Positions 20,175 through 43,607 of a stretch of 46,128 bases of DNA are shown here, one piece after another. The stretch is from assembly GCA_031278175.1 (NCBI GenBank), contig JAITLB010000229.1, positions 1 to 46,128 of the forward strand, in the 5' to 3' direction. A program made the translations under genes and the position numbers. Position 1 is the stretch's first letter. Each line of letters opens with the position of its first letter. This DNA comes from Christensenellaceae bacterium (GTDB lineage: Bacteria; Bacillota; Clostridia; Christensenellales; DTU072). Below the pieces are notes generated by a model that did not search any database, was not told the origin of the DNA, and saw nothing but the letters and a program-made list of their open reading frames with translations.

Positions 20175-20251
20175 TGGTGTACCCGACAGGGATCGAACCT
20201 GCAACCTACAGCGTCGGAGGCTGTTACTCTATCCAATTGCGCTACGGGTAC
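20175..20251 (-). tRNA. tRNA-Arg (anticodon CCG)
   Basis: 77-nt cloverleaf GTACCCG..CGGGTAC-A-CCA; anticodon arm ACAGC-CTCCGAC-GCTGT; T-loop TTCGATC. Confidence 0.95.
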
Positions 20252-25357: not shown

Positions 25358-25432
25358 TGGAGCGGAAAACGGGATTCGAACCCGCAACAACTGCCTTGGG
25401 AAGGCAGGACTCTACCATTGAGCTATTTCCGC
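25358..25432 (-). tRNA. tRNA-Gly (anticodon CCC)
   Basis: 75-nt cloverleaf GCGGAAA..TTTCCGC-T-CCA; anticodon arm CTGCC-TTCCCAA-GGCAG; upstream TTGATA-17-TATTAT promoter. Confidence 0.95.
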
Positions 25433-27942: not shown

Positions 27943-29286
27943 TTATTGCGAATTGCGACTGTTATAGTCGTCAATCGAGGCATAATAACTTCGCATATAC
28001 GGACTATCGTCTACAACTTGTGGTCTATACGAGGTTGTTCCATATCCACTAGCAGTTGATTGAGCGGGTATTGGAATTCCTTTAGATCCTGAGAATGCAC
28101 CTTTTAGTGAGCGACCTTTGCCAACATATTGAGACTTTCGTATTATACCTATAGCTAAGCTAGAGATAGCGACAAAAACACCAAAAATGTAGAAAGCGTT
28201 TCTCAAAGGGAATATCGAAATAATAGCTACGATCAAATAATTGCTATCAAACCAAGCCATGCGTTTATAATCAAACACACCTCTAGTTTCGCTGTTAGGA
28301 ACAAGTTTAATTTGAATCACTCCAGTTTCAGCATTAATAAGTTTCATATCAATATAGATGGGCGCACCTAGCACGTTTTCATCTGCTAATGCAGTAGCCA
28401 AGGAAGCCATTATATCATCGATTGGAATGGTGCCCGTATAGTCTTCTGTGAAATAGCCTTCCGAAACAAACATAACAATACCCGTTAGATCGCCAAGTAA
28501 ATCATTTAGATTTAGGTCTAGACTCATTACATCTTGTTGCATGTCGAGAATTGCCCATTTTATAGGAGCATCTTTATTTTCCTCGCCTCTGCCCTCACCG
28601 ACATAATTGGTGAATGGTTTGCTGGGGGCAGCTCTCTCATCAAACAACAAGTGTATGAGAACGGGGATAGTAAGTCTACTACCGTCAGCTAAATTAATGA
28701 GTGGGCCAGGCCAATTTCTATAAGCATCATTGTCAATACTCTGAAATGACTCTTTTATTAACTTCTGAACATCTTCGTTTTGATACCCCTCGCTTCTGTA
28801 TGTCTCAGCCTTAGCGGGGTCTAAACGAGCATTAGCAATGTTCATCTCGATAAAATCGTGTAGCATTTCCGAGTGGAGATATGCTCGATCAGCATAGTCC
28901 TCTTCAAGATCGGAATAATGTATTGTGTTGCTCGTAGCACTTGATAGTATTGGTGGCAAGTATTTATCAAGAGCGAACCAAACACCTGTTGTTAGAATGA
29001 CACTTGCAATGACCAGCACCGTAGTACCAATATAGGCAGAGCGTGCCGTTTTCCTTCTTTTTGTGATCATTCCAGTTATTAGTGCAACAAGCAAGTATAA
29101 CAACCAAATTACAACCATAACAAGCAAACCTGCAAATACATATGGCATATAAGTAGTATTATCTGTGCCCACATTAGAATCATATATTACGAACATGCTT
29201 TGGTAGACGGTATATGCCATCAAAACAGGGAATCCTAATACATAAGCAAATACTTTAAGCCAAAACAGACCTTTTGATTTTTTCAT
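27943..29286 (-). CDS. Hypothetical membrane protein (3 N-terminal TM, large acidic domain, C-terminal TM)
   Basis: 447-aa ORF; hydropathy judged by eye; TAATG overlap with the upstream gene. Confidence 0.8.
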   Translation of the reverse strand: MKKSKGLFWLKVFAYVLGFPVLMAYTVYQSMFVIYDSNVGTDNTTYMPYVFAGLLVMVVIWLLYLLVALITGMITKRRKTARSAYIGTTVLVIASVILTTGVWFALDKYLPPILSSATSNTIHYSDLEEDYADRAYLHSEMLHDFIEMNIANARLDPAKAETYRSEGYQNEDVQKLIKESFQSIDNDAYRNWPGPLINLADGSRLTIPVLIHLLFDERAAPSKPFTNYVGEGRGEENKDAPIKWAILDMQQDVMSLDLNLNDLLGDLTGIVMFVSEGYFTEDYTGTIPIDDIMASLATALADENVLGAPIYIDMKLINAETGVIQIKLVPNSETRGVFDYKRMAWFDSNYLIVAIISIFPLRNAFYIFGVFVAISSLAIGIIRKSQYVGKGRSLKGAFSGSKGIPIPAQSTASGYGTTSYRPQVVDDSPYMRSYYASIDDYNSRNSQ

Positions 29287-30893
29287 TATCTGTATCCTCC
29301 TTTCCCTGCGACAGTCAGTTTAGAAAATTGTTTGCGTTCAAAGAATGCAAATAGATAAGCAAGGATGAGACCGAGCGGTACAAAACCAGTATATTTTATT
29401 AATGTTCTTCTAATAGCTAACCAAGGATAATACTTTGGCATATATTCATTTTCGATATCTAATCGATTGAAGAGTGCCGTGATTTCATCATATGACATCG
29501 GAGGATTCCCAGAACTGTCCATTGTAACTTTACCAACACTATCTCCGATCAAAACCGTTCCTAAAACAGCCCCGTGCTTAGTACCGAAATATTTTGCGTA
29601 AGCATAGGTTCTAAGTTCTTTGTTTTGAATAAAAAACATTTTGGGATAAGTTGTTGGTGATTGATAATAAGATAAAGTGCCAATCACTTCCATAATATCG
29701 TTGATACCAATAGTAACAACAATTGGGTTACCATCCTCATCTAACATGGGCTTACCATTTTCATCTTTAGGGTTCAATAATCCGCTTGAATTTACGATAT
29801 CCAAAATGTTTTCAAGACTCAAATTTTTGTTTTCAAGTGCATCAGATATAGCACCGATTGTGCCAGCATCAAGCCCAAGCTGATCACCCGCAGCCAAAAG
29901 TGCTTTCAATAAATCATTTACGCGCTTATTTTCAAGTAGGTTAGCTAGCAATGTGTCGACAACGGCAGTAAGCTCATCTGCTGTGAGATAATAATGTGGT
30001 GCATACATCCAGTACGGATCATAGTAATTATCGCCTACCTTAATTTTTTGAGATTCATCAGTTGCTGGCGCATCAAGCACAGGAGCATCTCCATATGCAC
30101 GCTTATATTCAGCAGTATTCTGATATTGCTTCCAAAGCGATCCAGCTTCATCTAGTTTTTCCAGTTCTTTCTCTAGTTCTGCATCGGCATCTAAGTTATC
30201 GGCAGCAAACTTCGCCCGCGTCTCGTGATATACTTCCAAGATATAACGTGCTTGCTTGACACCAACAACGAAAGCGTCAGCGTATAAACCATTCATGCTA
30301 TAGACACCACCAGCTTCTTCTGCACCAAAAACATAGTGTTGCATTGTTGCAAACCCGTCAAGATATATATTCGAGACGAGATCGGAAGTGGTTGGGGTAT
30401 TATCAAAATTGTTACCTTTCTTTGACCCAGTGTCACCATTTAAATTGTACGTGTTTGAAAAAGTACCACTTGCGGAATTGTGCGAACTTAAGCGTGATGA
30501 AAAATCCATTACCTGTGTTTCGTATCTTGCGAAACTATATCCGCGTTCAGCATACTCTTCTTCTAGTTTTTCGAATTCGCTTTTAACTGTGAATTCCATG
30601 TACAATGTTGGTGCCAAAACAACAGCGGAGGCCACAATGACTACAATCAATGCTCTGACGTAGAATTCACGACGACGCAAGAAAATTCCTACGATAATCT
30701 GTAAGGCGATTACTCCTAAAAAACCATAATAAATGACATTATAACCATTTTTTGAGACACCAACATTGGTGATGTCTTTCTTTAAAAGGTATAAGAGCAA
30801 AGGAAAGCCAATTGCGTATGCGGCTATTTTTAAAACGCGCCAAAGCACTAGTTTAGCCTTAATCGCGTTAAGGTTATTGCCCATTCTGAACAC
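29286..30893 (-). CDS. Hypothetical membrane protein (3 N-terminal TM, large acidic domain, C-terminal TM)
   Basis: 535-aa ORF with AAGGAG RBS; the start may be GTG 30893 or ATG 30884. Confidence 0.8.
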   Translation of the reverse strand: MFRMGNNLNAIKAKLVLWRVLKIAAYAIGFPLLLYLLKKDITNVGVSKNGYNVIYYGFLGVIALQIIVGIFLRRREFYVRALIVVIVASAVVLAPTLYMEFTVKSEFEKLEEEYAERGYSFARYETQVMDFSSRLSSHNSASGTFSNTYNLNGDTGSKKGNNFDNTPTTSDLVSNIYLDGFATMQHYVFGAEEAGGVYSMNGLYADAFVVGVKQARYILEVYHETRAKFAADNLDADAELEKELEKLDEAGSLWKQYQNTAEYKRAYGDAPVLDAPATDESQKIKVGDNYYDPYWMYAPHYYLTADELTAVVDTLLANLLENKRVNDLLKALLAAGDQLGLDAGTIGAISDALENKNLSLENILDIVNSSGLLNPKDENGKPMLDEDGNPIVVTIGINDIMEVIGTLSYYQSPTTYPKMFFIQNKELRTYAYAKYFGTKHGAVLGTVLIGDSVGKVTMDSSGNPPMSYDEITALFNRLDIENEYMPKYYPWLAIRRTLIKYTGFVPLGLILAYLFAFFERKQFSKLTVAGKGGYR

Positions 30894-35963: not shown

Positions 35964-36290
35964 TTAAGATTGTAAATAGGCTTTTACTTCTTCAATAGTA
36001 CCGTTGAGCGCAAGTCTATACTCATCAAGTGTTTTTTGATCTAGATTGCCAGCGCGCAATTGATTCATTAAGCTTGTGCTTAACGGGAATAGTGGTTCCA
36101 TAGCAAGATTTCCTACAATTCCCTTAATCGCGTGCGCTACATCTCCAGCGAGTTTATAATCCTTTGCTTCTAAAGCAGTTTCAAAGTCTGCAAATTGAGG
36201 ACTATCTAAAAACATTTTTAGTAGTCTCTTATATAGTCCTACATTGTTACGCATGCGTAACATCGCCGTATTCATATCGATATATATCAT
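35964..36290 (-). CDS. Stand-alone histidine phosphotransfer (Hpt) protein
   Basis: LYKRLLKMF..AHAIKGIVGNL (H-x-[IL]-KG motif); own promoter TTGATT-17-TATTAT at 36378-36406. Confidence 0.85.
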   Translation of the reverse strand: MIYIDMNTAMLRMRNNVGLYKRLLKMFLDSPQFADFETALEAKDYKLAGDVAHAIKGIVGNLAMEPLFPLSTSLMNQLRAGNLDQKTLDEYRLALNGTIEEVKAYLQS

Positions 36291-37247
36291 AGAACGACCC
36301 TCGCATAGATTTTAATCTTATATTTAATGCACATGCAAAAATAGTTAGCAAGTCTTAGATTAAAATTTGCCAATGTAATAATATCAAACTAATCGCAAAT
36401 AATCAAGCATCAAGTAAGTAAATAACCTATTACACACAATAACAAAAAAGATAGAATTCCCGCAGCAACCACGCAATCGCCTTGAGAAGTGGATTGAAAT
36501 GTCGGAAAGCGCGAAAAGAGTTGTTGTAATTTAAAAACTCCGAAGCGCGAGATCAAGACTTGCGCACAACATAGTTTGCAATAATAAAAATGTCATAACT
36601 TACTGCAGACACATTGATATGCTACTTGCTAGTGCGCAATAACAAATAAGCAAATAGTAGGTTTTTCTCAATACAAACAACTTGATAAAACCGTCTGAGC
36701 ATTACGAAAAGAGTTAGTCTCGCAATTTGCATTGGATTTTTGAGGGAATGGTTAGCCCAAATAGAGATGCAGTAAAATCAGGGCGGTTGTGAGCGCAAAA
36801 CAGGTTACCTGCTAAAACGCATTAACTAAATAAGATAAGAGGTGTGGAAGAATGTAAAATCGATATTTCCAAAATGCCAAAGTTAAATGAGCATGATATT
36901 AGAAAGTGACTCTATATCAACAAACAAATAATGCAACAATATATTTGATAAGCAAATAAAATGGGAAAATGGTAAGAACGACTTTTATATTCTTGCTTAA
37001 GTACAGGCGGGGGTGAAAAGCTTTATGATTACAACTAAAAAGCAAGTAATACTCTACCTCTCTTAAGAATACAGTCTAGAAAAGAGGCAAGCATTTGAGA
37101 AGATGGCATTTAAGAGTTGTATGGTGGTATAAATTAGCGACACAATAATGCACACTTGTCTAATTTGCGAACTAATCAGTGTGGCAAATGCTTGCCGAGA
37201 TCAACAATAGTAAGTGTTTAGGGAATTTAACAATAAGAAAGAGTATC

Positions 37248-40202
37248 CTATTTAAAGAAATTAATTCCACGCATAAAAATATTAGTGTCTTGAGATTGTT
37301 CACAAGATTTAATATTGCGCTCGTATTGACCGATTCTTCCTAAAATATGTCCATCGGGCGAAGAAATTCCTTCAACACCATAAGAACTACCACAGGGGTT
37401 GTATGGATCTTGAGAAGTAGGTACTAACTCCTCATCAACAAAATAGGTAGTTATTTGACCGCTGTTTTCGAGTTGCTCTTTCATTTCGCTACTTAAAAAT
37501 ATGTTTCCAGGATTTAATGCAGTCGGTATTATGATTTCTTGACCTATTCTGCTACCATACATCCAAGGACTCAACTCCGAAACTACTATACCACTTACTA
37601 CCGAACCTCCAAATCTTTTTGGATCGATGAAATCCGCCGAAGTGTTATCTCTTGTTCTAAATTCACCAAACGGAATTAGTCCTAACTCGAAGAGCGTTCT
37701 CATACCCTCACCAAAGCCCAAAATAAGCCCACCACGATCCAACATGCCTTTCACAGCATTAATTACAATGGGATTCGAAAAAAACTTATAGTAACGCGAA
37801 TATGAGTTGATAATTTTTTGACAGGCATTATTTGCACTTAGTGCTAGTATTTGCGAGTTTGCGATACTTTTAGCGTAGAGTTTTAATAATTCATAATCTG
37901 ACGATGTATTTAGAATAGAAGCTACAGAAACTTTGCCACCTGCTAGAGCAAATGAGCGTGCGAGCTGTACACTTGAAATTGAATCAACACGTGGAATGAA
38001 TACTGCGGGCTTTGCGGTCATCGGTGTTTTAGGTATACGTGTTAGTGGAGTAAAAGTTTTGTAGTCTTTAAATCGAGACTTGGTGTCAGGACGGAATGGC
38101 GGGATGATTTCTGATAGTGAACCGATCAACGCTGAACTTTCCGCGCCTTTAATGATTTCGGTATCATCCACAACACCGATATATTCGTACTCAAGGGTTG
38201 CGAAGTCTGACATATCTTCAGTGGCAACAATAAAGTCACCCCAACAACCACTTAATGCATTGTCAGCAAATTCAACAAACGTAACACCAGTTTTGACATC
38301 TTCTAAGGCATTGACTATGTCTACTAAGGGATTATCATTTGTTGTTATTAGAGATTCAACTCTGCCACGTTCCGCACTGATAGTTACGAGATTATATAGC
38401 TTTCGCAAGCGTTTAAAATCGGGGATAGAATATTCATCTTTAATTATCGGCAGTCGATATAGACGCTGTTTTTTTCTAAAGCATCTAGACGGGAATACTT
38501 GCGAAATTCCTATGCCTGTAGCGACAACTGACACCGACACATGTTGACTTTTTGAGAGAGGTTCAAAATTGGCAGATAACATTTTAACGTTTAAGTGTGT
38601 AATTGCATAGAAGCATCCTAGTGCTACAGCGGAAAGATCGTTAAGAGTGTTTTGAGTCATTCCAGGTGGATGAATACAATTGATAGCAACTCCGATTCTA
38701 GACAGTGGCACACCTTGAGAGATAAGTTTTGATACAGCGTAAACTACAGAATTTACTGTCCCTGCAAACGGTGATCCTAAAAAGTGTGATGAAATATTTG
38801 AAAAGCTTGTTATTAATGTACGCGAGTTTTCAAATCGAGATATGTCGTATGCGGTTATATTTGATTGGAGTAGTTTTCGTATTCCTATAAATTGTGGTAG
38901 CGATGATCCGCCGCTAATAGTGCGATCAAACGGGGGATTGCAATGGGCCGGGCACGTTCTAAACGAATCAAAAACTAGCTTTTTAATTTCATCTAAAGCA
39001 ACGGGTGGCATTATGAGTGGTTTGTCGATGATGTTGACAGAAGTGAAACCGATGTTCTTGTGGATTAACAATTTTGTCGGCAAACAAACATATCTTTTAT
39101 TATGTACTGATAATGTTAGTGTATCATCGCGCGTAATGCGTCCTAACATAATAGCCTTGAGACTTTTAGGAAGAGATCTTACAAAGGCACCAGCGCGCCC
39201 TTTTTTAATTATCAATATTATGTCATCGGTATAATTGCATTCAATAAATTGCTCTAATTGATTCAAATTGCCGAAAGTTGCATTTACTCCTGCATTGAGA
39301 GACAGCAGTTGTTGAACAAGAGACGCGCCAACAGCGGAACTACGTATAGCAAAGGCCGCGTTTCGATTTTCAAACAGTTCTTTAAGTCCGCGACTGCGTT
39401 CTAAAAGCGTTTGATCCGATGTTATTAATACTATATAATCTCCTGGGGAAGGTTGAAAATCTTCAGCATTAGAATTTGAAGCTACACCTATAGCAAATAT
39501 CGTCTCGCAATTTGTTTCGGCTTCTAAACTCGAATTATCGTCTATTAGTGCTGTTGCGATGCCTGATTCATATGCATAGTTAGCCGTTTCTAGCGTGGAT
39601 TCACTAGGTGTGAGGTTCTTATCGATGTTGCAGGATCGTGTCATACAAATTGGTTGACCGAAATCGCCGAGCATTTTCATATTAGTTATGTATAGCGCTC
39701 TTGGTGCGTGAGTAGTTAGACTTGACTTTGAAGTGGCGATCACTCCGTACGCGTCCGATGCTCTGCGTTTCTCGGATGTAAGAGGGACGCTTGAAAATTC
39801 ACGTTTGTTATTTAATTCACAATTTGCTGCTAGCGCCGCACCAGAAAAAATTATAGAATTGAGCGAGGTAAATTGCGTCTTCAAATTTCCTTCAGCGATG
39901 CGATATTTGCGAAGTGCTTCAAAATGATGTGGGTTTTCTGCGCATATTTCTATTTGGTCAATTGATTTATCAGCACAATTAGAAATTTGCCAATATTTAC
40001 TTAAAAGTTGAAACTCAATAACATTGAAGGCACGTTTGCGAGCATGCGCAAAGCGTGCGACTTCTCTAAGATCATCTGCCGATAAATTTAAGTCTTGTAT
40101 GTTTGCAATGTCAGATAATTCCGAGTAGTCTACAGCATGAAGTTTGTTAAGCTTATAGAGAGCACGATTTTTGTTGTGGCGATGTCGCATTTGCTGATGC
40201 AC
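37248..40202 (-). CDS. Catalytically degenerate homolog of clostridial-type FGAM synthase (PurL with fused glutaminase domain)
   Basis: Collinear PurL landmarks: PGDYIVLI, FDRTI, SPFAG, AKPAVFIP, GGLILG..LGLIPFGE, SPWM, YNPCGS..EGISSPDG. Catalytic motifs replaced. AGGAG RBS before GTG. Confidence 0.8.
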   Translation of the reverse strand: MHQQMRHRHNKNRALYKLNKLHAVDYSELSDIANIQDLNLSADDLREVARFAHARKRAFNVIEFQLLSKYWQISNCADKSIDQIEICAENPHHFEALRKYRIAEGNLKTQFTSLNSIIFSGAALAANCELNNKREFSSVPLTSEKRRASDAYGVIATSKSSLTTHAPRALYITNMKMLGDFGQPICMTRSCNIDKNLTPSESTLETANYAYESGIATALIDDNSSLEAETNCETIFAIGVASNSNAEDFQPSPGDYIVLITSDQTLLERSRGLKELFENRNAAFAIRSSAVGASLVQQLLSLNAGVNATFGNLNQLEQFIECNYTDDIILIIKKGRAGAFVRSLPKSLKAIMLGRITRDDTLTLSVHNKRYVCLPTKLLIHKNIGFTSVNIIDKPLIMPPVALDEIKKLVFDSFRTCPAHCNPPFDRTISGGSSLPQFIGIRKLLQSNITAYDISRFENSRTLITSFSNISSHFLGSPFAGTVNSVVYAVSKLISQGVPLSRIGVAINCIHPPGMTQNTLNDLSAVALGCFYAITHLNVKMLSANFEPLSKSQHVSVSVVATGIGISQVFPSRCFRKKQRLYRLPIIKDEYSIPDFKRLRKLYNLVTISAERGRVESLITTNDNPLVDIVNALEDVKTGVTFVEFADNALSGCWGDFIVATEDMSDFATLEYEYIGVVDDTEIIKGAESSALIGSLSEIIPPFRPDTKSRFKDYKTFTPLTRIPKTPMTAKPAVFIPRVDSISSVQLARSFALAGGKVSVASILNTSSDYELLKLYAKSIANSQILALSANNACQKIINSYSRYYKFFSNPIVINAVKGMLDRGGLILGFGEGMRTLFELGLIPFGEFRTRDNTSADFIDPKRFGGSVVSGIVVSELSPWMYGSRIGQEIIIPTALNPGNIFLSSEMKEQLENSGQITTYFVDEELVPTSQDPYNPCGSSYGVEGISSPDGHILGRIGQYERNIKSCEQSQDTNIFMRGINFFK

Positions 40203-40214
40203 AAGATCTCCTAT

Positions 40215-43200
40215 TTAGGGTGTGGCTTCGTTGAATACCTTAATATTTTCTGTGCTAAACATAGATGTAATTGTTGGATTGCTTTGATAAGAACTAACGA
40301 TACTTGAACTGTAAACCTCCAAAGTCCTTTCGCTGTTGATAGAAGCACCAAAGGCATTTGCTTGAATCTCTACAGTACCGTTAATAAGTATCATAACACG
40401 TTGAATAGCTGTGTTAGCAAATGCATTAGTTGCTATATATGACAGATTCGACTGTACATTAAAGCGGATTGCTCTAATTGTTGGAATAGAGTCACCGGGA
40501 GATGGTGAAAAAGCATTGGACGCGATTGCTGTAATAGAGTTATCCACAACAAAAGTTTCGGATGTGCCAGTGTATTTGAGTAATATAGTACCTAAAATTA
40601 CTGTTGTTCCTTGAGATGCTTGCCATGGTGTATGCGCAAAAGAATCTCGTCCGACTTGTTTTAGAGAAGATTGATCTGATATAGTTACTGATGAGAGTTT
40701 ATCACAACGAGCAAATGCTTCATCACCTATTTCACTAATAGCATCAGTTAGCTGAACTATCGCAAGCAACTCAGCCGAAAAGAATGCCCTAGAAGCGATT
40801 TTAATTTTTTGAGATGGAGAAGTAGGGAAAATAATTTTTTCTACACATCTAGAATATGCAAAGGCATATGAAGAGACTTGCACAATAGCATTACTGCTCA
40901 CAGTAGTAGGAATAGTATACTCTTTATTCGATGGATCCTTGTTTGCAGGATAGGCAAACAAAGAGGCAGAACCTGTTTGTAGAACCTCAAAGAGTATTCC
41001 GTCATCTACAAAGTACTTGTAATCCTGATCGTTAAAATTCATTATTATAAAAGATTTAAGTTCAGCAAGATTTGAGAACGCTCCACTTTCAATTTCTTTA
41101 ATACTGCTACCGAACATGATGTTTTCGATTTGATAAGGAAAGTACATATCAGCAAACGCTGAGGCCGCTATTTTTATAACATTTTTATTGTTATATGTTT
41201 GAGGTATAACAACAGTTTCAAAAATAGTGATGCCGCTAGGCGCAAAACCTGTTAAAGCGAGATCATTACCATAGGCTTCAAATACTAACCCAGGTGTACC
41301 CTTTAATAGATCCATCCATTCTGGATAGAAGTTTGTATCAGTTTCAATCTTATAACCGTCTTCAAAATCTATAACCAGCGTAGCAAAGTTTTTACTATCA
41401 TGCCATCCAATAAAACTAAAATCTGCTTGCGCAGTTGGTTCATAAGATGGCTTAGTAGTTGTGGCGGGTGGTGAAAGCTGACCTTGTGTAGTAATAGAAC
41501 TACCATATTTAATATTAGTAAGATTTTTCGCTACTTCATACTCCATTGCGCCCGATGAAGAGTTAATCGTTTTTAAACTATAAAAGATTACAGTGTACTC
41601 GATTATTTCAACAACTGCGGTAAAATGATTATTACTTTCTTTTTCATAGAAATCTTCAATTGGCATTTGTGCGATATTATCTGGTGTTAATGCGTTAGTA
41701 TTTGCTCCTAAAAGCCAACCTATAATCTTATATTGTGGATTGTTTCCAAACGATGGCACATTAGAGACTGTTTGACCATGTGCAACCTCTCTTTTGACTG
41801 GTTGTGTGTAATCGGATATCCCAAGAGAAGAATAGTCAATTGCAATATTATCTTTCGTTTTTTCAGGATAATAGAACTCTACCGTGTAAGGATTTTTTTC
41901 ATGTGTCGCTTCAAAAGTGATGTCTGATGTGACAAGTACGGTGCTACCATCATATATAATACCACCGCGTTTCCATGTAGTAGTGTAAGACTTAGGGGGA
42001 TAAGCATTATTAATATTGGGGAAATCACTAGATGTTAACACTGTATTATACGGCTGGTTTGTGAGAAATTCAGAGGTTTTGTTTGATGAATCTGTTCCAT
42101 ACACAAAAGTTATCGTAAATTTGCGAACAGTATAGCGTGCATAAAAGTCATAATCGTTGGTTATCCCTGAAGCTAAAACTGCTTTTGCCTCCGCTACAGT
42201 TGAAAACGAACCTGCAGTTCGATATGTCCAATCTCCATCGTACCCGTCTCTTCCGTCAGCTAAATCGAATCCTGAAACAATAGGAGTGTTAGGAACGTGT
42301 TCATTGTAATTTACTGTAAGAGTACTTAATGTCCTCACTTCGTATTGAGTATAGTCTAATTGCTCAAAATTAAAGTTTGGTGGTAAAGATGACATTGGCA
42401 TGAAAAAACGCAAAGTGTGCGTAAGTGTCGTATAGACCGCATCAATGTTCATGTTGGATTTAATATTAGTTAAAACTGGTATTAGTGAAGTAGCCCTATC
42501 GCGCCAAACGTAAGTTTTGCCGACAATGGAGGCATCTGGCATTTGTGCTTGAGTTAAGTTCGTTCCATAGTCTACATCAATAGTAGTAACACCTGTTAAA
42601 TTTGCATCAGTTTTGAAAGCATCGGCAAAGAAGTTTACTTGAAATTTAATTTGTACGAATGAGGCAAAAAATGTCATATTTGCATTAGCGACAACAGACA
42701 TTCCTGCTGTGTAATTTGGATCTGAATCAGTACTTAATCTCCAGCCCGAGAAACGTTTACCTTCTTGATCTTGAGGTGTAATGCAAAAAAAGGATTCGCC
42801 GTCCGGCACAAGAGTTGTTTGATCGAAGTTAGCATCGTAATCCACAAACCGTATTTCTCGTTTTGTGGAGTTTACCCATTTAGCATAAAGCGTGTGTGAT
42901 TGTGTGACGACATATGGAGTTTCTATTTTAGCACCAGCGAGGTCTTGGGTTTTGTACCAACCTGCAAAATCGTATCCTTCCCTGATCGGAGACGGAATAT
43001 AATTGGTAGCAGTGCCTAAGGCGGCATTGACTTGCATGTATGTAACTAGTTCGCCCAGCTCAGTTTGAAAAGCACCAGGAGAGGCATCAAGCATAAGCGC
43101 ACCATCAAATTCTGACTGTAGTGCAAGTATATTAATGGTGACGACTAGTGTAAGCGTATCAACGTGTATAGTGACACCGTGTGCGCCGACACTTTTTAAT

Positions 43201-43451
43201 TTTGCCCTGTCATCGGATGACAACATATCTTCGGTTAGAGTATAGCGCTCTAACACTTCACCAGTTCCGTTAACTTTAGAAAAGCGTATTGTGCCTAAGT
43301 TAACACTGTTAACAGTAAACTCTATGGTTCCTTGATTTTCTAGAACCAGTTTTTCTTCTACAGCGTTGTCTGTAGTGCAAGCAACCAATATAAATATGAA
43401 TATTGCGATACTGATCAAGACCAGCATAAAAATAAGTTTTTTTGACATCAC
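40215..43451 (-). CDS. Large surface lipoprotein with InlB-B/Flg_new-type repeats and BspA-type (LRR_5) leucine-rich repeats
   Basis: Signal peptide with lipobox LVAC; PIREGYDFAGWY..TLYAKW-type repeats; IKEIESGAF, ISEIGDEAFARCDKLSSVTI, ITAIASNAF. Confidence 0.85.
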   Translation of the reverse strand: MMSKKLIFMLVLISIAIFIFILVACTTDNAVEEKLVLENQGTIEFTVNSVNLGTIRFSKVNGTGEVLERYTLTEDMLSSDDRAKLKSVGAHGVTIHVDTLTLVVTINILALQSEFDGALMLDASPGAFQTELGELVTYMQVNAALGTATNYIPSPIREGYDFAGWYKTQDLAGAKIETPYVVTQSHTLYAKWVNSTKREIRFVDYDANFDQTTLVPDGESFFCITPQDQEGKRFSGWRLSTDSDPNYTAGMSVVANANMTFFASFVQIKFQVNFFADAFKTDANLTGVTTIDVDYGTNLTQAQMPDASIVGKTYVWRDRATSLIPVLTNIKSNMNIDAVYTTLTHTLRFFMPMSSLPPNFNFEQLDYTQYEVRTLSTLTVNYNEHVPNTPIVSGFDLADGRDGYDGDWTYRTAGSFSTVAEAKAVLASGITNDYDFYARYTVRKFTITFVYGTDSSNKTSEFLTNQPYNTVLTSSDFPNINNAYPPKSYTTTWKRGGIIYDGSTVLVTSDITFEATHEKNPYTVEFYYPEKTKDNIAIDYSSLGISDYTQPVKREVAHGQTVSNVPSFGNNPQYKIIGWLLGANTNALTPDNIAQMPIEDFYEKESNNHFTAVVEIIEYTVIFYSLKTINSSSGAMEYEVAKNLTNIKYGSSITTQGQLSPPATTTKPSYEPTAQADFSFIGWHDSKNFATLVIDFEDGYKIETDTNFYPEWMDLLKGTPGLVFEAYGNDLALTGFAPSGITIFETVVIPQTYNNKNVIKIAASAFADMYFPYQIENIMFGSSIKEIESGAFSNLAELKSFIIMNFNDQDYKYFVDDGILFEVLQTGSASLFAYPANKDPSNKEYTIPTTVSSNAIVQVSSYAFAYSRCVEKIIFPTSPSQKIKIASRAFFSAELLAIVQLTDAISEIGDEAFARCDKLSSVTISDQSSLKQVGRDSFAHTPWQASQGTTVILGTILLKYTGTSETFVVDNSITAIASNAFSPSPGDSIPTIRAIRFNVQSNLSYIATNAFANTAIQRVMILINGTVEIQANAFGASINSERTLEVYSSSIVSSYQSNPTITSMFSTENIKVFNEATP

Positions 43452-43578: not shown

Positions 43579-43607
43579 ACTATATCATAATTTGCGCTAA
43601 TTGTCAA
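43579..43607 (-). promoter_or_regulatory. Sigma-70 promoter of the lipoprotein/PurL-like operon
   Basis: TTGACA-17bp-TATAGT with TGn extension. Confidence 0.6.

Follow-up and report, generated by a model that had tools for sequence, protein, structure and literature searches.

A PurL-like paralog without catalytic motifs is maintained beside a surface lipoprotein gene in Christensenellaceae

Introduction

Why should a bacterium with a purine pathway of its own keep a long, uninterrupted gene for a relative of PurL, the phosphoribosylformylglycinamidine (FGAM) synthase, from which the catalytic motifs have gone? The question is raised by a gene, here called c0, on contig JAITLB010000229.1 of a Christensenellaceae bacterium (GenBank assembly GCA_031278175.1; genome G000 in what follows), a stretch of 46,128 nucleotides (nt) that we refer to as the window. 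An earlier note on this DNA, drawn up from the letters alone, had proposed that selection maintains a non-catalytic PurL at this locus, perhaps as a nucleotide or glutamine sensor or as a scaffold. The core of that proposal, a selected PurL homolog without catalysis, is supported by the comparative sequence analysis described here, which also provides the protein with a family, a history and genetic partners from which a role may be inferred.

Eukaryotes and viruses offer many well-documented pseudoenzymes descended from core metabolic enzymes; for bacteria such cases are rarely documented. Our search of the literature on PurL pseudoenzymes and paralogs, which misses most subscription journals, returned the herpesviral vGAT proteins as the only PurL-derived case and turned up no relevant work on purL of Christensenellaceae. 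In PMC7605207, these proteins are described as homologs of PFAS/PurL that lack purine-synthesis activity and are kept for a non-metabolic, protein-binding role, and as pseudoenzymes that redirect cellular PFAS.

Results

c0 is an intact gene for a protein of the PurL fold

The gene and its start signal lie in the window as follows.

37248..40202, minus strand: c0, open reading frame (ORF) of the short PurL-like pseudoenzyme, 984 amino acids (aa), GTG start, alternative ATG at 40190
40208..40212, minus strand: AGGAG ribosome-binding site, read from the sequence, ending 5 nt ahead of the c0 GTG

The plus-strand reading of 37248..40202 is full of stop codons, and the frame of c0 is on the minus strand, where the gene caller begins it at the ATG four codons further in (980 aa). 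From base composition, the probability that 984 codons would stay open in this region is about 1e-28; the other five frames contain 34–86 stops; and the codon usage of c0 correlates with that of 11 other ORFs of the window at r = 0.87, compared with 0.31 and 0.13 for two shifted frames. The open frame is thus not due to chance, and the description of c0 in the earlier note as 984 uninterrupted codons preceded by a ribosome-binding site was accurate. Neither a signal peptide nor a transmembrane segment is predicted in the product. A look-up of sequencing runs listed no RNA run that contains this sequence; the one run listed is of DNA, from a termite gut metagenome that is probably the source sample.

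Family profiles recognize only part of this protein. Among Pfam models GATase_5 alone passes (residues 732–970, E 7.5e-25), and on the clostridial-type FGAM-synthase equivalog TIGR01857, for which the cut-off is 1057 bits, c0 reaches 147.7 bits over model positions 652–1239 only, so that by whole-protein score c0 falls outside TIGR01857. Direct comparison extends the relationship: when the 1241-aa PurL of a relative (G011) was used in tblastn, its residues 172–1240 aligned to c0 with 25% identity (E 7e-60). Since the alignment begins at residue 172, about 170 N-terminal residues, corresponding to the PurS-like domain, are missing from c0, as had been supposed. A search of PDB sequences with c0 produced a single weak local match, to human PFAS (E 0.0013), and the fold was therefore taken from an AlphaFold2 (AF2) model built with 48 sequences (mean pLDDT 82.7, pTM 0.88). 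The top 19 Foldseek matches of this model in the PDB are all Salmonella large PurL (lgPurL) or human PFAS, with TMq of 0.66–0.70 at 13–14% identity, and the best E value, 8e-43, is to lgPurL. The model and its matches indicate that the folds of both the synthetase and the glutaminase parts are kept, which agrees with the earlier reading that the landmarks of the fold survive. c0 is a homolog of PurL over both of its domains, the PurM/AIRS-superfamily part and the class I glutamine amidotransferase (GATase) part, located as follows.

38043..40073, minus strand: degenerate FGAM-synthetase-like region (A1/B1/A2/B2 subdomains), residues ~44–720, with all motifs for ATP and formylglycinamide ribonucleotide (FGAR) lost; its first half is the most diverged part
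37293..38009, minus strand: class I glutaminase-like domain (Pfam GATase_5), residues 732–970, without Cys or His, from Pfam and alignment

With the large PurL (TIGR01857; relatives Salmonella lgPurL, 1T3T, and human PFAS, 9N9W), c0 therefore shares the A1/B1/A2/B2 FGAM-synthetase and class I glutaminase folds, together with many structural Gly and Pro residues and the NPxGS, SPDG and ER blocks. It differs from that enzyme in having no PurS-like N-domain and no catalytic motifs, in lying in an operon that is not a pur operon, in bearing signatures of its own and in its four- to fivefold longer branches. The PurLQS complex of Gram-positive bacteria and archaea (small PurL, PurQ and PurS; 3D54 and 2HS0 are among the Foldseek matches) consists of the same domains and illustrates that separate PurL parts can act as assembly partners; in c0, unlike in this complex, the PurL-like and PurQ-like parts are fused, the PurS-like part is absent and no catalytic residues remain.

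The catalytic motifs are lost throughout the short paralogs

We compared motifs by aligning c0 with 42 full-length PurLs, and repeated the comparison with 21 full-length PurLs of related genomes. The synthetase motifs YWSDHCRH, ETHNHP, GRDGxGGA, DFGAGG and GGKDS occur in all 21 of these relatives; neither c0 nor any of the short paralogs has them. In c0 the His-bearing end of YWSDHCRH and the whole of GRDGxGGA are deleted, whereas ETHNHP, DFGAGG and GGKDSMSG are replaced. In the glutaminase part, the oxyanion motif PGGFS has become SANNA, the nucleophile motif GICNGFQ has become GFGEGMR, SHGEG has become ALNPG and GHxER has become GQYER. All of the strings that the earlier note had quoted (YWQISNCA, SAVGA, SANFEPL, SANNA, GFGEGMR, ALNPG and IGQYER) are present in the c0 translation, and its statement that every catalytic motif is replaced holds in that all motifs are replaced or deleted; "every" is slightly too strong, because of the catalytic triad only the Cys (now Gly831) and the His (now Gln959) have changed and Glu961 is kept. 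Of the 58 columns in which canonical PurLs are at least 93% invariant, c0 retains 34, mostly Gly, Pro and hydrophobic residues.

The loss of the motifs is common to all short paralogs, and the residues found in their place differ from one paralog to another, which implies that no alternative ligand-binding consensus took over. The sole replacement consensus, GxGEGx[R/K], is at the nucleophile elbow and is found in most members of the window's family; members from a second family, f19, lack GEGxR, and one of them (G078) reads ASGVSTL at this site. Across 22 core paralogs, 72 columns are at least 80% conserved, 45 of them shared with canonical PurL and 27 specific to the paralogs, and E961 is kept in 91%. 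Two of the paralog-specific elements map to the window at

37698..37718, minus strand: remodelled nucleophile elbow GFGEGMR (signature GxGEGx[R/K]; canonical GICNGFQ), from alignments
38148..38183, minus strand: paralog-specific conserved block YxGVVDDxGxIK, residues 674–685, from the paralog alignment

By these alignments c0 apparently has no FGAM-synthase activity and is, in that sense, catalytically dead. On sequence grounds it is a pseudoenzyme, combining loss of catalytic residues with purifying selection across lineages.

c0 is redundant for purine synthesis

The genome from which the window comes is 87% complete in 275 contigs and, in keeping with what the earlier note had suggested looking for, carries both a canonical purL and the rest of the pathway: purE-M-N-H-D-L are on contig C171, purF and purC on C60, and purB on C136. 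The canonical purL scores 1512.8 bits against the TIGR01857 cut-off of 1057, with all motifs visible before the contig ends. Judged by gene content, c0 is redundant for purine synthesis in this genome, and each of the c0-bearing genomes examined also shows a full-length PurL where its assembly allows.

Two further observations concern the full-length enzymes themselves. The sole full-length PurLs found in three genomes (G007:C26, G021:C70 and G017:C3) keep the synthetase motifs and lack the glutaminase Cys (LGLGGGME, LGVGGAIE and IGIANGFQ, respectively); SHGEG is also absent from all three and PGGFS from two, and we found no stand-alone PurQ in these genomes. FGAM synthesis in these three organisms may depend on free ammonia, and the apparent restriction of several genomes to Cys-less PurLs, with no PurQ, bears on how ammonia is supplied to purine synthesis there. 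In addition, the full-length PurLs of the window's family form at least three distinct lineages that cut across the labels of genus and family (the one from G020 groups with that of G078, from the other family), which suggests old paralogy or transfer of purL.

Short forms are widespread in the family and evolve fast under constraint

A word-indexed search returned no close ortholog of c0, and a profile search for related loci with a three-row alignment returned only two metagenome-assembled genomes (MAGs) of the same genus; orthologs surfaced through genome searches and exhaustive HMMER, which listed 645 relatives at E ≤ 1e-3, including a set of ~970–1030-aa proteins that align end to end. 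No name for members of this group was found in the sources searched. Of 41 genomes of relatives (G000 included), 12 have an unbroken frame of ~930–1058 aa (715 aa in G003) beside a PurL of ~1245 aa. With the short form defined as a score above 500 bits to the paralog profile in an open frame below 1100 aa, it is present in 36 of 81 genomes of the Christensenellaceae-labelled family, from ten genera, a count that takes in four contig-cut pieces, two ~900-aa forms of genus g15, and G003. Besides G003, the short forms are unbroken frames of ~900–1058 aa or contig-cut pieces, with ~20–36% mutual identity. Closer sets of c0 sequences, at 72–86% identity, are represented by clusters P0015 and P0159–P0161. 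The ortholog in G003 (C253) is ~707–715 aa with an in-frame TAG inside the match, and is possibly decaying in its genus. Among the 81 genomes, no short form was found in genera g14 (0 of 28), g7, g3, g10, g13, g8 and g11; in an order-wide sample of 151 genomes, five of them from the window's family, the short form occurred outside that family only in f19.

Two candidates for the short form were discarded. The frame in G106 belongs to a canonical PurL within a pur operon and is short because the contig ends there, and that of G060 is a split but catalytically intact PurL, encoded at C8 5958–9702 as two adjacent ORFs, a 232-aa N-domain and a 1001-aa remainder; the division is natural or else results from a frameshift in the region of YWSDHCRH. 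The ESM Atlas holds many further clusters of ~800–1050-aa "PurL family" proteins from Bacillota and Bacteroidota.

In a tree of 35 sequences, comprising short forms and full-length PurLs, the short forms are monophyletic (support 1.0) and have branches of 0.9–2.0 substitutions per site versus 0.2–0.4 for full-length PurLs, that is, they evolve about four to five times faster. We calculated nonsynonymous (dN) and synonymous (dS) divergence by NG86 for G007 and G021, the closest pair with DNA.

c0: dN 0.233, dS 1.00
full-length PurL: dN 0.097, dS 0.70
c1, the lipoprotein gene upstream of c0: dN 0.250, dS 1.37
c3, a small membrane-protein gene: dN 0.166, dS 0.63
PNPase: dN 0.074, dS 0.86

As the dS of c0 is near saturation, 0.23 is an upper bound on its dN/dS ratio (omega); between G001 and G002 dS is saturated and the ratio carries no information. 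Identities between G000 and G001 place c0 as the fastest-evolving gene of its neighbourhood.

canonical PurL: 73%
energy-coupling factor (ECF) ATPases: 70–72%
TruA: 53%
c1: 45%
c0: 36%

c0 is nonetheless not neutral; its constraint is that of an ordinary protein that evolves fast. The claim that selection keeps a PurL homolog without catalytic residues is therefore upheld by its occurrence in 36 of 81 genomes, by the shared loss of motifs and by a dN/dS of at most 0.23, and we hold with high confidence that c0 is a real, selected paralog that is not an FGAM synthase.

c0 is co-inherited with a surface lipoprotein gene

Upstream of c0, the window contains

40215..43451, minus strand: c1, 1078-aa lipoprotein with a signal peptide and lipobox Cys25, Listeria-Bacteroides repeats and BspA-type leucine-rich repeats (LRR)
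43579..43607, minus strand: highest-ranking promoter-like site in the region (TTGACA-17-TATAGT with TG), ~130 nt ahead of c1, by consensus match only

In the window, 12 nt separate the stop codon of c1 from the start of c0, and consensus matching found neither a promoter-like nor a terminator-like site in this junction. c1 is single-copy in the genome, and its lipobox Cys25 is invariant. In 12 of 13 loci compared, c1 is directly upstream of c0 on the same strand, with a gap of −20 to +17 nt, whereas the outer flanks of the pair vary (birA in the window, pnp in three genomes, others elsewhere, and valS in the second family); in none of the 13 does c0 adjoin pur genes. Over the 36 c0-bearing genomes, a c1 ortholog is directly upstream of c0 in 33, the two are split by contig ends in two, and one (G013) has no c1. 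No c1 ortholog was found in the c0-free genera g14 (0 of 28 genomes), g10 (0 of 6), g7 and g11. In G009 we found a c1 cut by a contig end but no c0, and in G016 a partial match to c1. c0 is thus co-inherited with the surface lipoprotein c1; the two are, from their arrangement, almost certainly co-transcribed, and a functional coupling between c0 and the lipoprotein gene is probable.

Other features of the window lie further downstream. Of the 13 loci, only those of G000, G001 and G002, the three genomes of the window's genus, encode a 108-aa Hpt-domain protein 3′ of c0 (in the window at 35964–36290, minus strand). At 27943–30893 (minus strand) lie two neighbouring ORFs, of 447 and 535 aa, that match no Pfam model; G002 has conserved counterparts of both and G001 of the 535-aa one (48–59% identity). 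Two tRNA genes, at 20178–20251 and 25361–25432 (minus strand), are the only Rfam matches in the window.

A small membrane-protein gene follows PurL-family genes in many genomes

The second partner, c3, encodes a protein of ~170 aa with three hydrophobic helices, the first of which is followed by a basic loop that predicts a cytoplasmic location for the C-terminal ~70 residues. It is present in 30 of the 81 family genomes and in 22 of the 36 that bear c0. Wherever c3 and a PurL-family gene share a contig, c3 is downstream on the same strand (24 of 24 cases; 17 within 221 nt and 7 at 1.9–6.3 kb). In g10 and g3, which lack c0, a complete pur operon ends in the full-length purL with c3 behind it, and in the f19 genome G078 c3 adjoins c0 downstream, the upstream neighbour there being valS and not c1. 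In a sub-lineage of genus g4 (G221:C2, G223:C6 and G217:C1), ~2.3 kb lie between c0 and c3, and in G206, G222 and G220 the open frame of c3 is 280–296 aa long, so that c3 is maybe fused to, or preceded by, an extra domain.

The predicted structure of c3 (pLDDT 87.9) consists of three transmembrane helices and a small beta-sandwich. Foldseek found no PDB match to it at E ≤ 0.001, and the matches from VIA, to PH-like folds (Z 6–7.5) and to a three-helix bundle of the SemiSWEET type (Z 8.6), do not rise above the noise range stated for the tool. Complex prediction for the G018 pair (c0 residues 85–997 with c3 residues 92–170) scored 0.00 with the fold of the partner uncertain, which weighs neither for nor against binding. 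Residue 777 of c0 is Arg in seven of seven c3-bearing genomes and Ala in four of five c3-lacking genomes with data; this co-variation was rejected as evidence, as it reflects only about two independent events of c3 loss.

In the window's genus c3 was not found (0 of 3 genomes), and tblastn of c3 proteins against the window and the whole G000 genome returned nothing. Its place downstream of c0 is taken by

36291..37247, no strand assigned: 957-bp stretch without an ORF of at least 60 aa, where c3 sits in other genera

This stretch (ORFs of at most 54 aa, 34.5% GC) showed no c3 remnant, no Rfam match, no likeness to the corresponding gaps of G001 and G002 and no repeat elsewhere in the genome.

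The nearest relatives of c0 suggest a path of decay

The tree joins the c0 clade, as sister group, to the c3-linked PurLs encoded in the pur operons of g10 and g3 (weak support, 0.82). The c3-linked PurLs of g10 are fully intact. In the copies of g3 (G019_C21 and G004_C46) all five synthetase motifs are kept and the nucleophile site reads GIGEGFK and GIGDGFH, respectively; G019 carries a second, intact PurL (C10). Like c0, these Cys-less full-length proteins have a remodelled nucleophile motif and are followed by c3 at the 3′ end, as c0 is in many genera; unlike c0, they retain the N-domain and the synthetase motifs and still lie last in the pur operon. Their sequences suggest an intermediate stage toward c0.

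Discussion

Taken together, these results are consistent with the following course of events, the order of which is suggested by a weakly supported topology. The c0 clade would have descended from a pur-operon purL lineage that carried c3 at its 3′ end, in a setting where another functional purL, we infer, left this copy free to change. The glutaminase site would have been remodelled first, as in the still full-length GIGEGFK copy of G019; the synthetase site and the PurS-like N-domain would then have been lost, and the gene would finally have left the pur operon and come to sit behind c1. The present protein would no longer make FGAM and may act through contacts with proteins on the cytoplasmic side of the membrane, as a scaffold or adaptor that serves a cell-envelope module in the production, anchoring or signalling of the lipoprotein, ancestrally perhaps by way of the PH-like cytoplasmic domain of c3. 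We put the explanation as a whole, that is, a selected PurL-fold paralog without catalytic residues, with an origin in the c3-linked pur operon and a role as cytoplasmic scaffold for an envelope module, at about even chances. Its least certain part is the mechanism: that c0 is a non-catalytic scaffold acting at the envelope is a tentative suggestion that we rate somewhat below even.

Several observations weigh against this explanation. The placement as sister to the c3-linked PurLs is weakly supported and may be affected by long branches. Because c0 has no export signal and mature c1 is extracellular, direct contact between the two is not expected. As the window's genus has no c3, a mechanism that depends on c3 cannot apply there as such, and, since c3 already follows purL in g10, the adjacency of c0 and c3 could partly be inherited synteny. 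The C-terminal part of the c3 model resembles PH-like domains weakly, at Z scores within the noise range, and this resemblance is a lead. The truncated copy of G003 and the fast evolution of the family indicate that constraint is not strong everywhere. Finally, the conserved Glu and Arg at the remodelled site may mark a new active site rather than a structural plug.

This last point leads to the most serious of the other explanations, that c0 is still an enzyme with new chemistry at the remodelled pocket (Glu832, Arg835 and Glu961) or at another site, acting maybe on a lipoprotein precursor or an envelope component. The conservation of GxGEGx[R/K] and of 26 other paralog-specific columns, the retention of E961, the purifying selection and the appearance of the same remodelled motif in G019_C21, where the synthetase motifs are intact, all speak for it; however, Gly stands where the nucleophilic Cys was, the PGGFS and His positions are not conserved among paralogs, neither of the two pseudo-symmetric halves keeps any ATP motif of the PurM superfamily, members of the second family do without GEGxR, and the polar residues that are conserved mostly occur in canonical PurL too and seem to be structural. 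We consider such an enzyme distinctly unlikely. Less likely again would be a sensor or regulator that binds a nucleotide, glutamine or a purine intermediate in the degenerate site and signals, for example, to the Hpt protein. The folds of both ligand-binding domains are kept and an Hpt-domain gene does follow c0 in G000, G001 and G002, but the ATP, FGAR and glutamine sites are lined by substituted residues that differ from paralog to paralog, the Hpt neighbour is confined to one genus among the 13 loci, and at none of these is c0 beside pur genes. Of the two roles that the earlier note had put forward, sensor and scaffold, the former is accordingly not supported, with its site residues replaced and unconserved and the gene outside any pur operon, and the latter is the most plausible in view of the operon and membrane context.

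The herpesviral precedent (PMC7605207) brings in a further alternative, in which c0 would form heteromers with canonical PurL and change its activity or give it a target in the manner of a protein deamidase. That c0-bearing genomes also show a full-length PurL is compatible with such modulation; in G007, G021 and G017, however, the only full-length PurL lacks the glutaminase Cys, leaving no glutaminase to redirect, and the operon partners of c0 suggest a link with the envelope rather than with purine metabolism, so that we think this quite improbable. As for a functionless, redundant duplicate that decays slowly while being carried in the c1 transcript, its rate of change (36% identity, versus 45–73% for neighbours and canonical PurL), the loss of all catalytic motifs and the TAG-bearing truncation in G003 are what one would look for. 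Yet G003 is the only one of 36 short forms, across about ten genera, with an in-frame stop, and the dN/dS of at most 0.23, the confident and compact predicted fold, the family-specific columns and the normal codon usage have largely refuted this possibility, which we regard as very improbable indeed.

A broader version of the scaffold explanation, bolder and in our estimate unlikely, would be that PurL in these Clostridia has an old second job at the membrane, which was handed to a dedicated copy, c0, in a three-part envelope module of lipoprotein, membrane adaptor and PurL-fold scaffold, making c0 the first bacterial PurL pseudoenzyme. The intact pur-operon PurL that is linked to c3 in some genera would represent the earlier state; a second purL would have freed the moonlighting function, and the dedicated copy would have shed catalysis and the N-domain, gained GxGEGx(R/K) and YxGVVDD, and joined an operon with the LRR lipoprotein.

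The gammaherpesvirus vGAT/vFGARAT proteins (ORF75, BNRF1; TIGR01739) share with c0 the reuse of a PurL homolog without purine synthesis. The resemblance is one of analogy only, since c0 scores 11.5 bits against TIGR01739 (E 0.048; cut-off 716 bits) and shows no specific relationship to it. The viral proteins are full-length captures of a host gene that act on host immunity, whereas c0 is chromosomal and bacterial, N-terminally shortened, and part of an operon of envelope genes.

To the herpesviral case, c0 would add PurL pseudoenzymes that make up an entire clade of bacterial proteins, differ from the viral ones in architecture and belong to an operon of their own; in this group a path of decay can be read, from the intact c3-linked enzyme, through a full-length form with a dead glutaminase, to the short and fully dead form. 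Its tight, phyletically matched operon partner may offer an experimental handle on how the fold of a ~110-kDa enzyme is reused. There is also a consequence for annotation. In Pfam, short forms match only GATase_5, sometimes with AIRS_C as well, and ESM Atlas clusters of similar length are automatically named "phosphoribosylformylglycinamidine synthase"; such proteins risk being counted as purL in metabolic reconstructions of MAGs from the gut and the termite gut.

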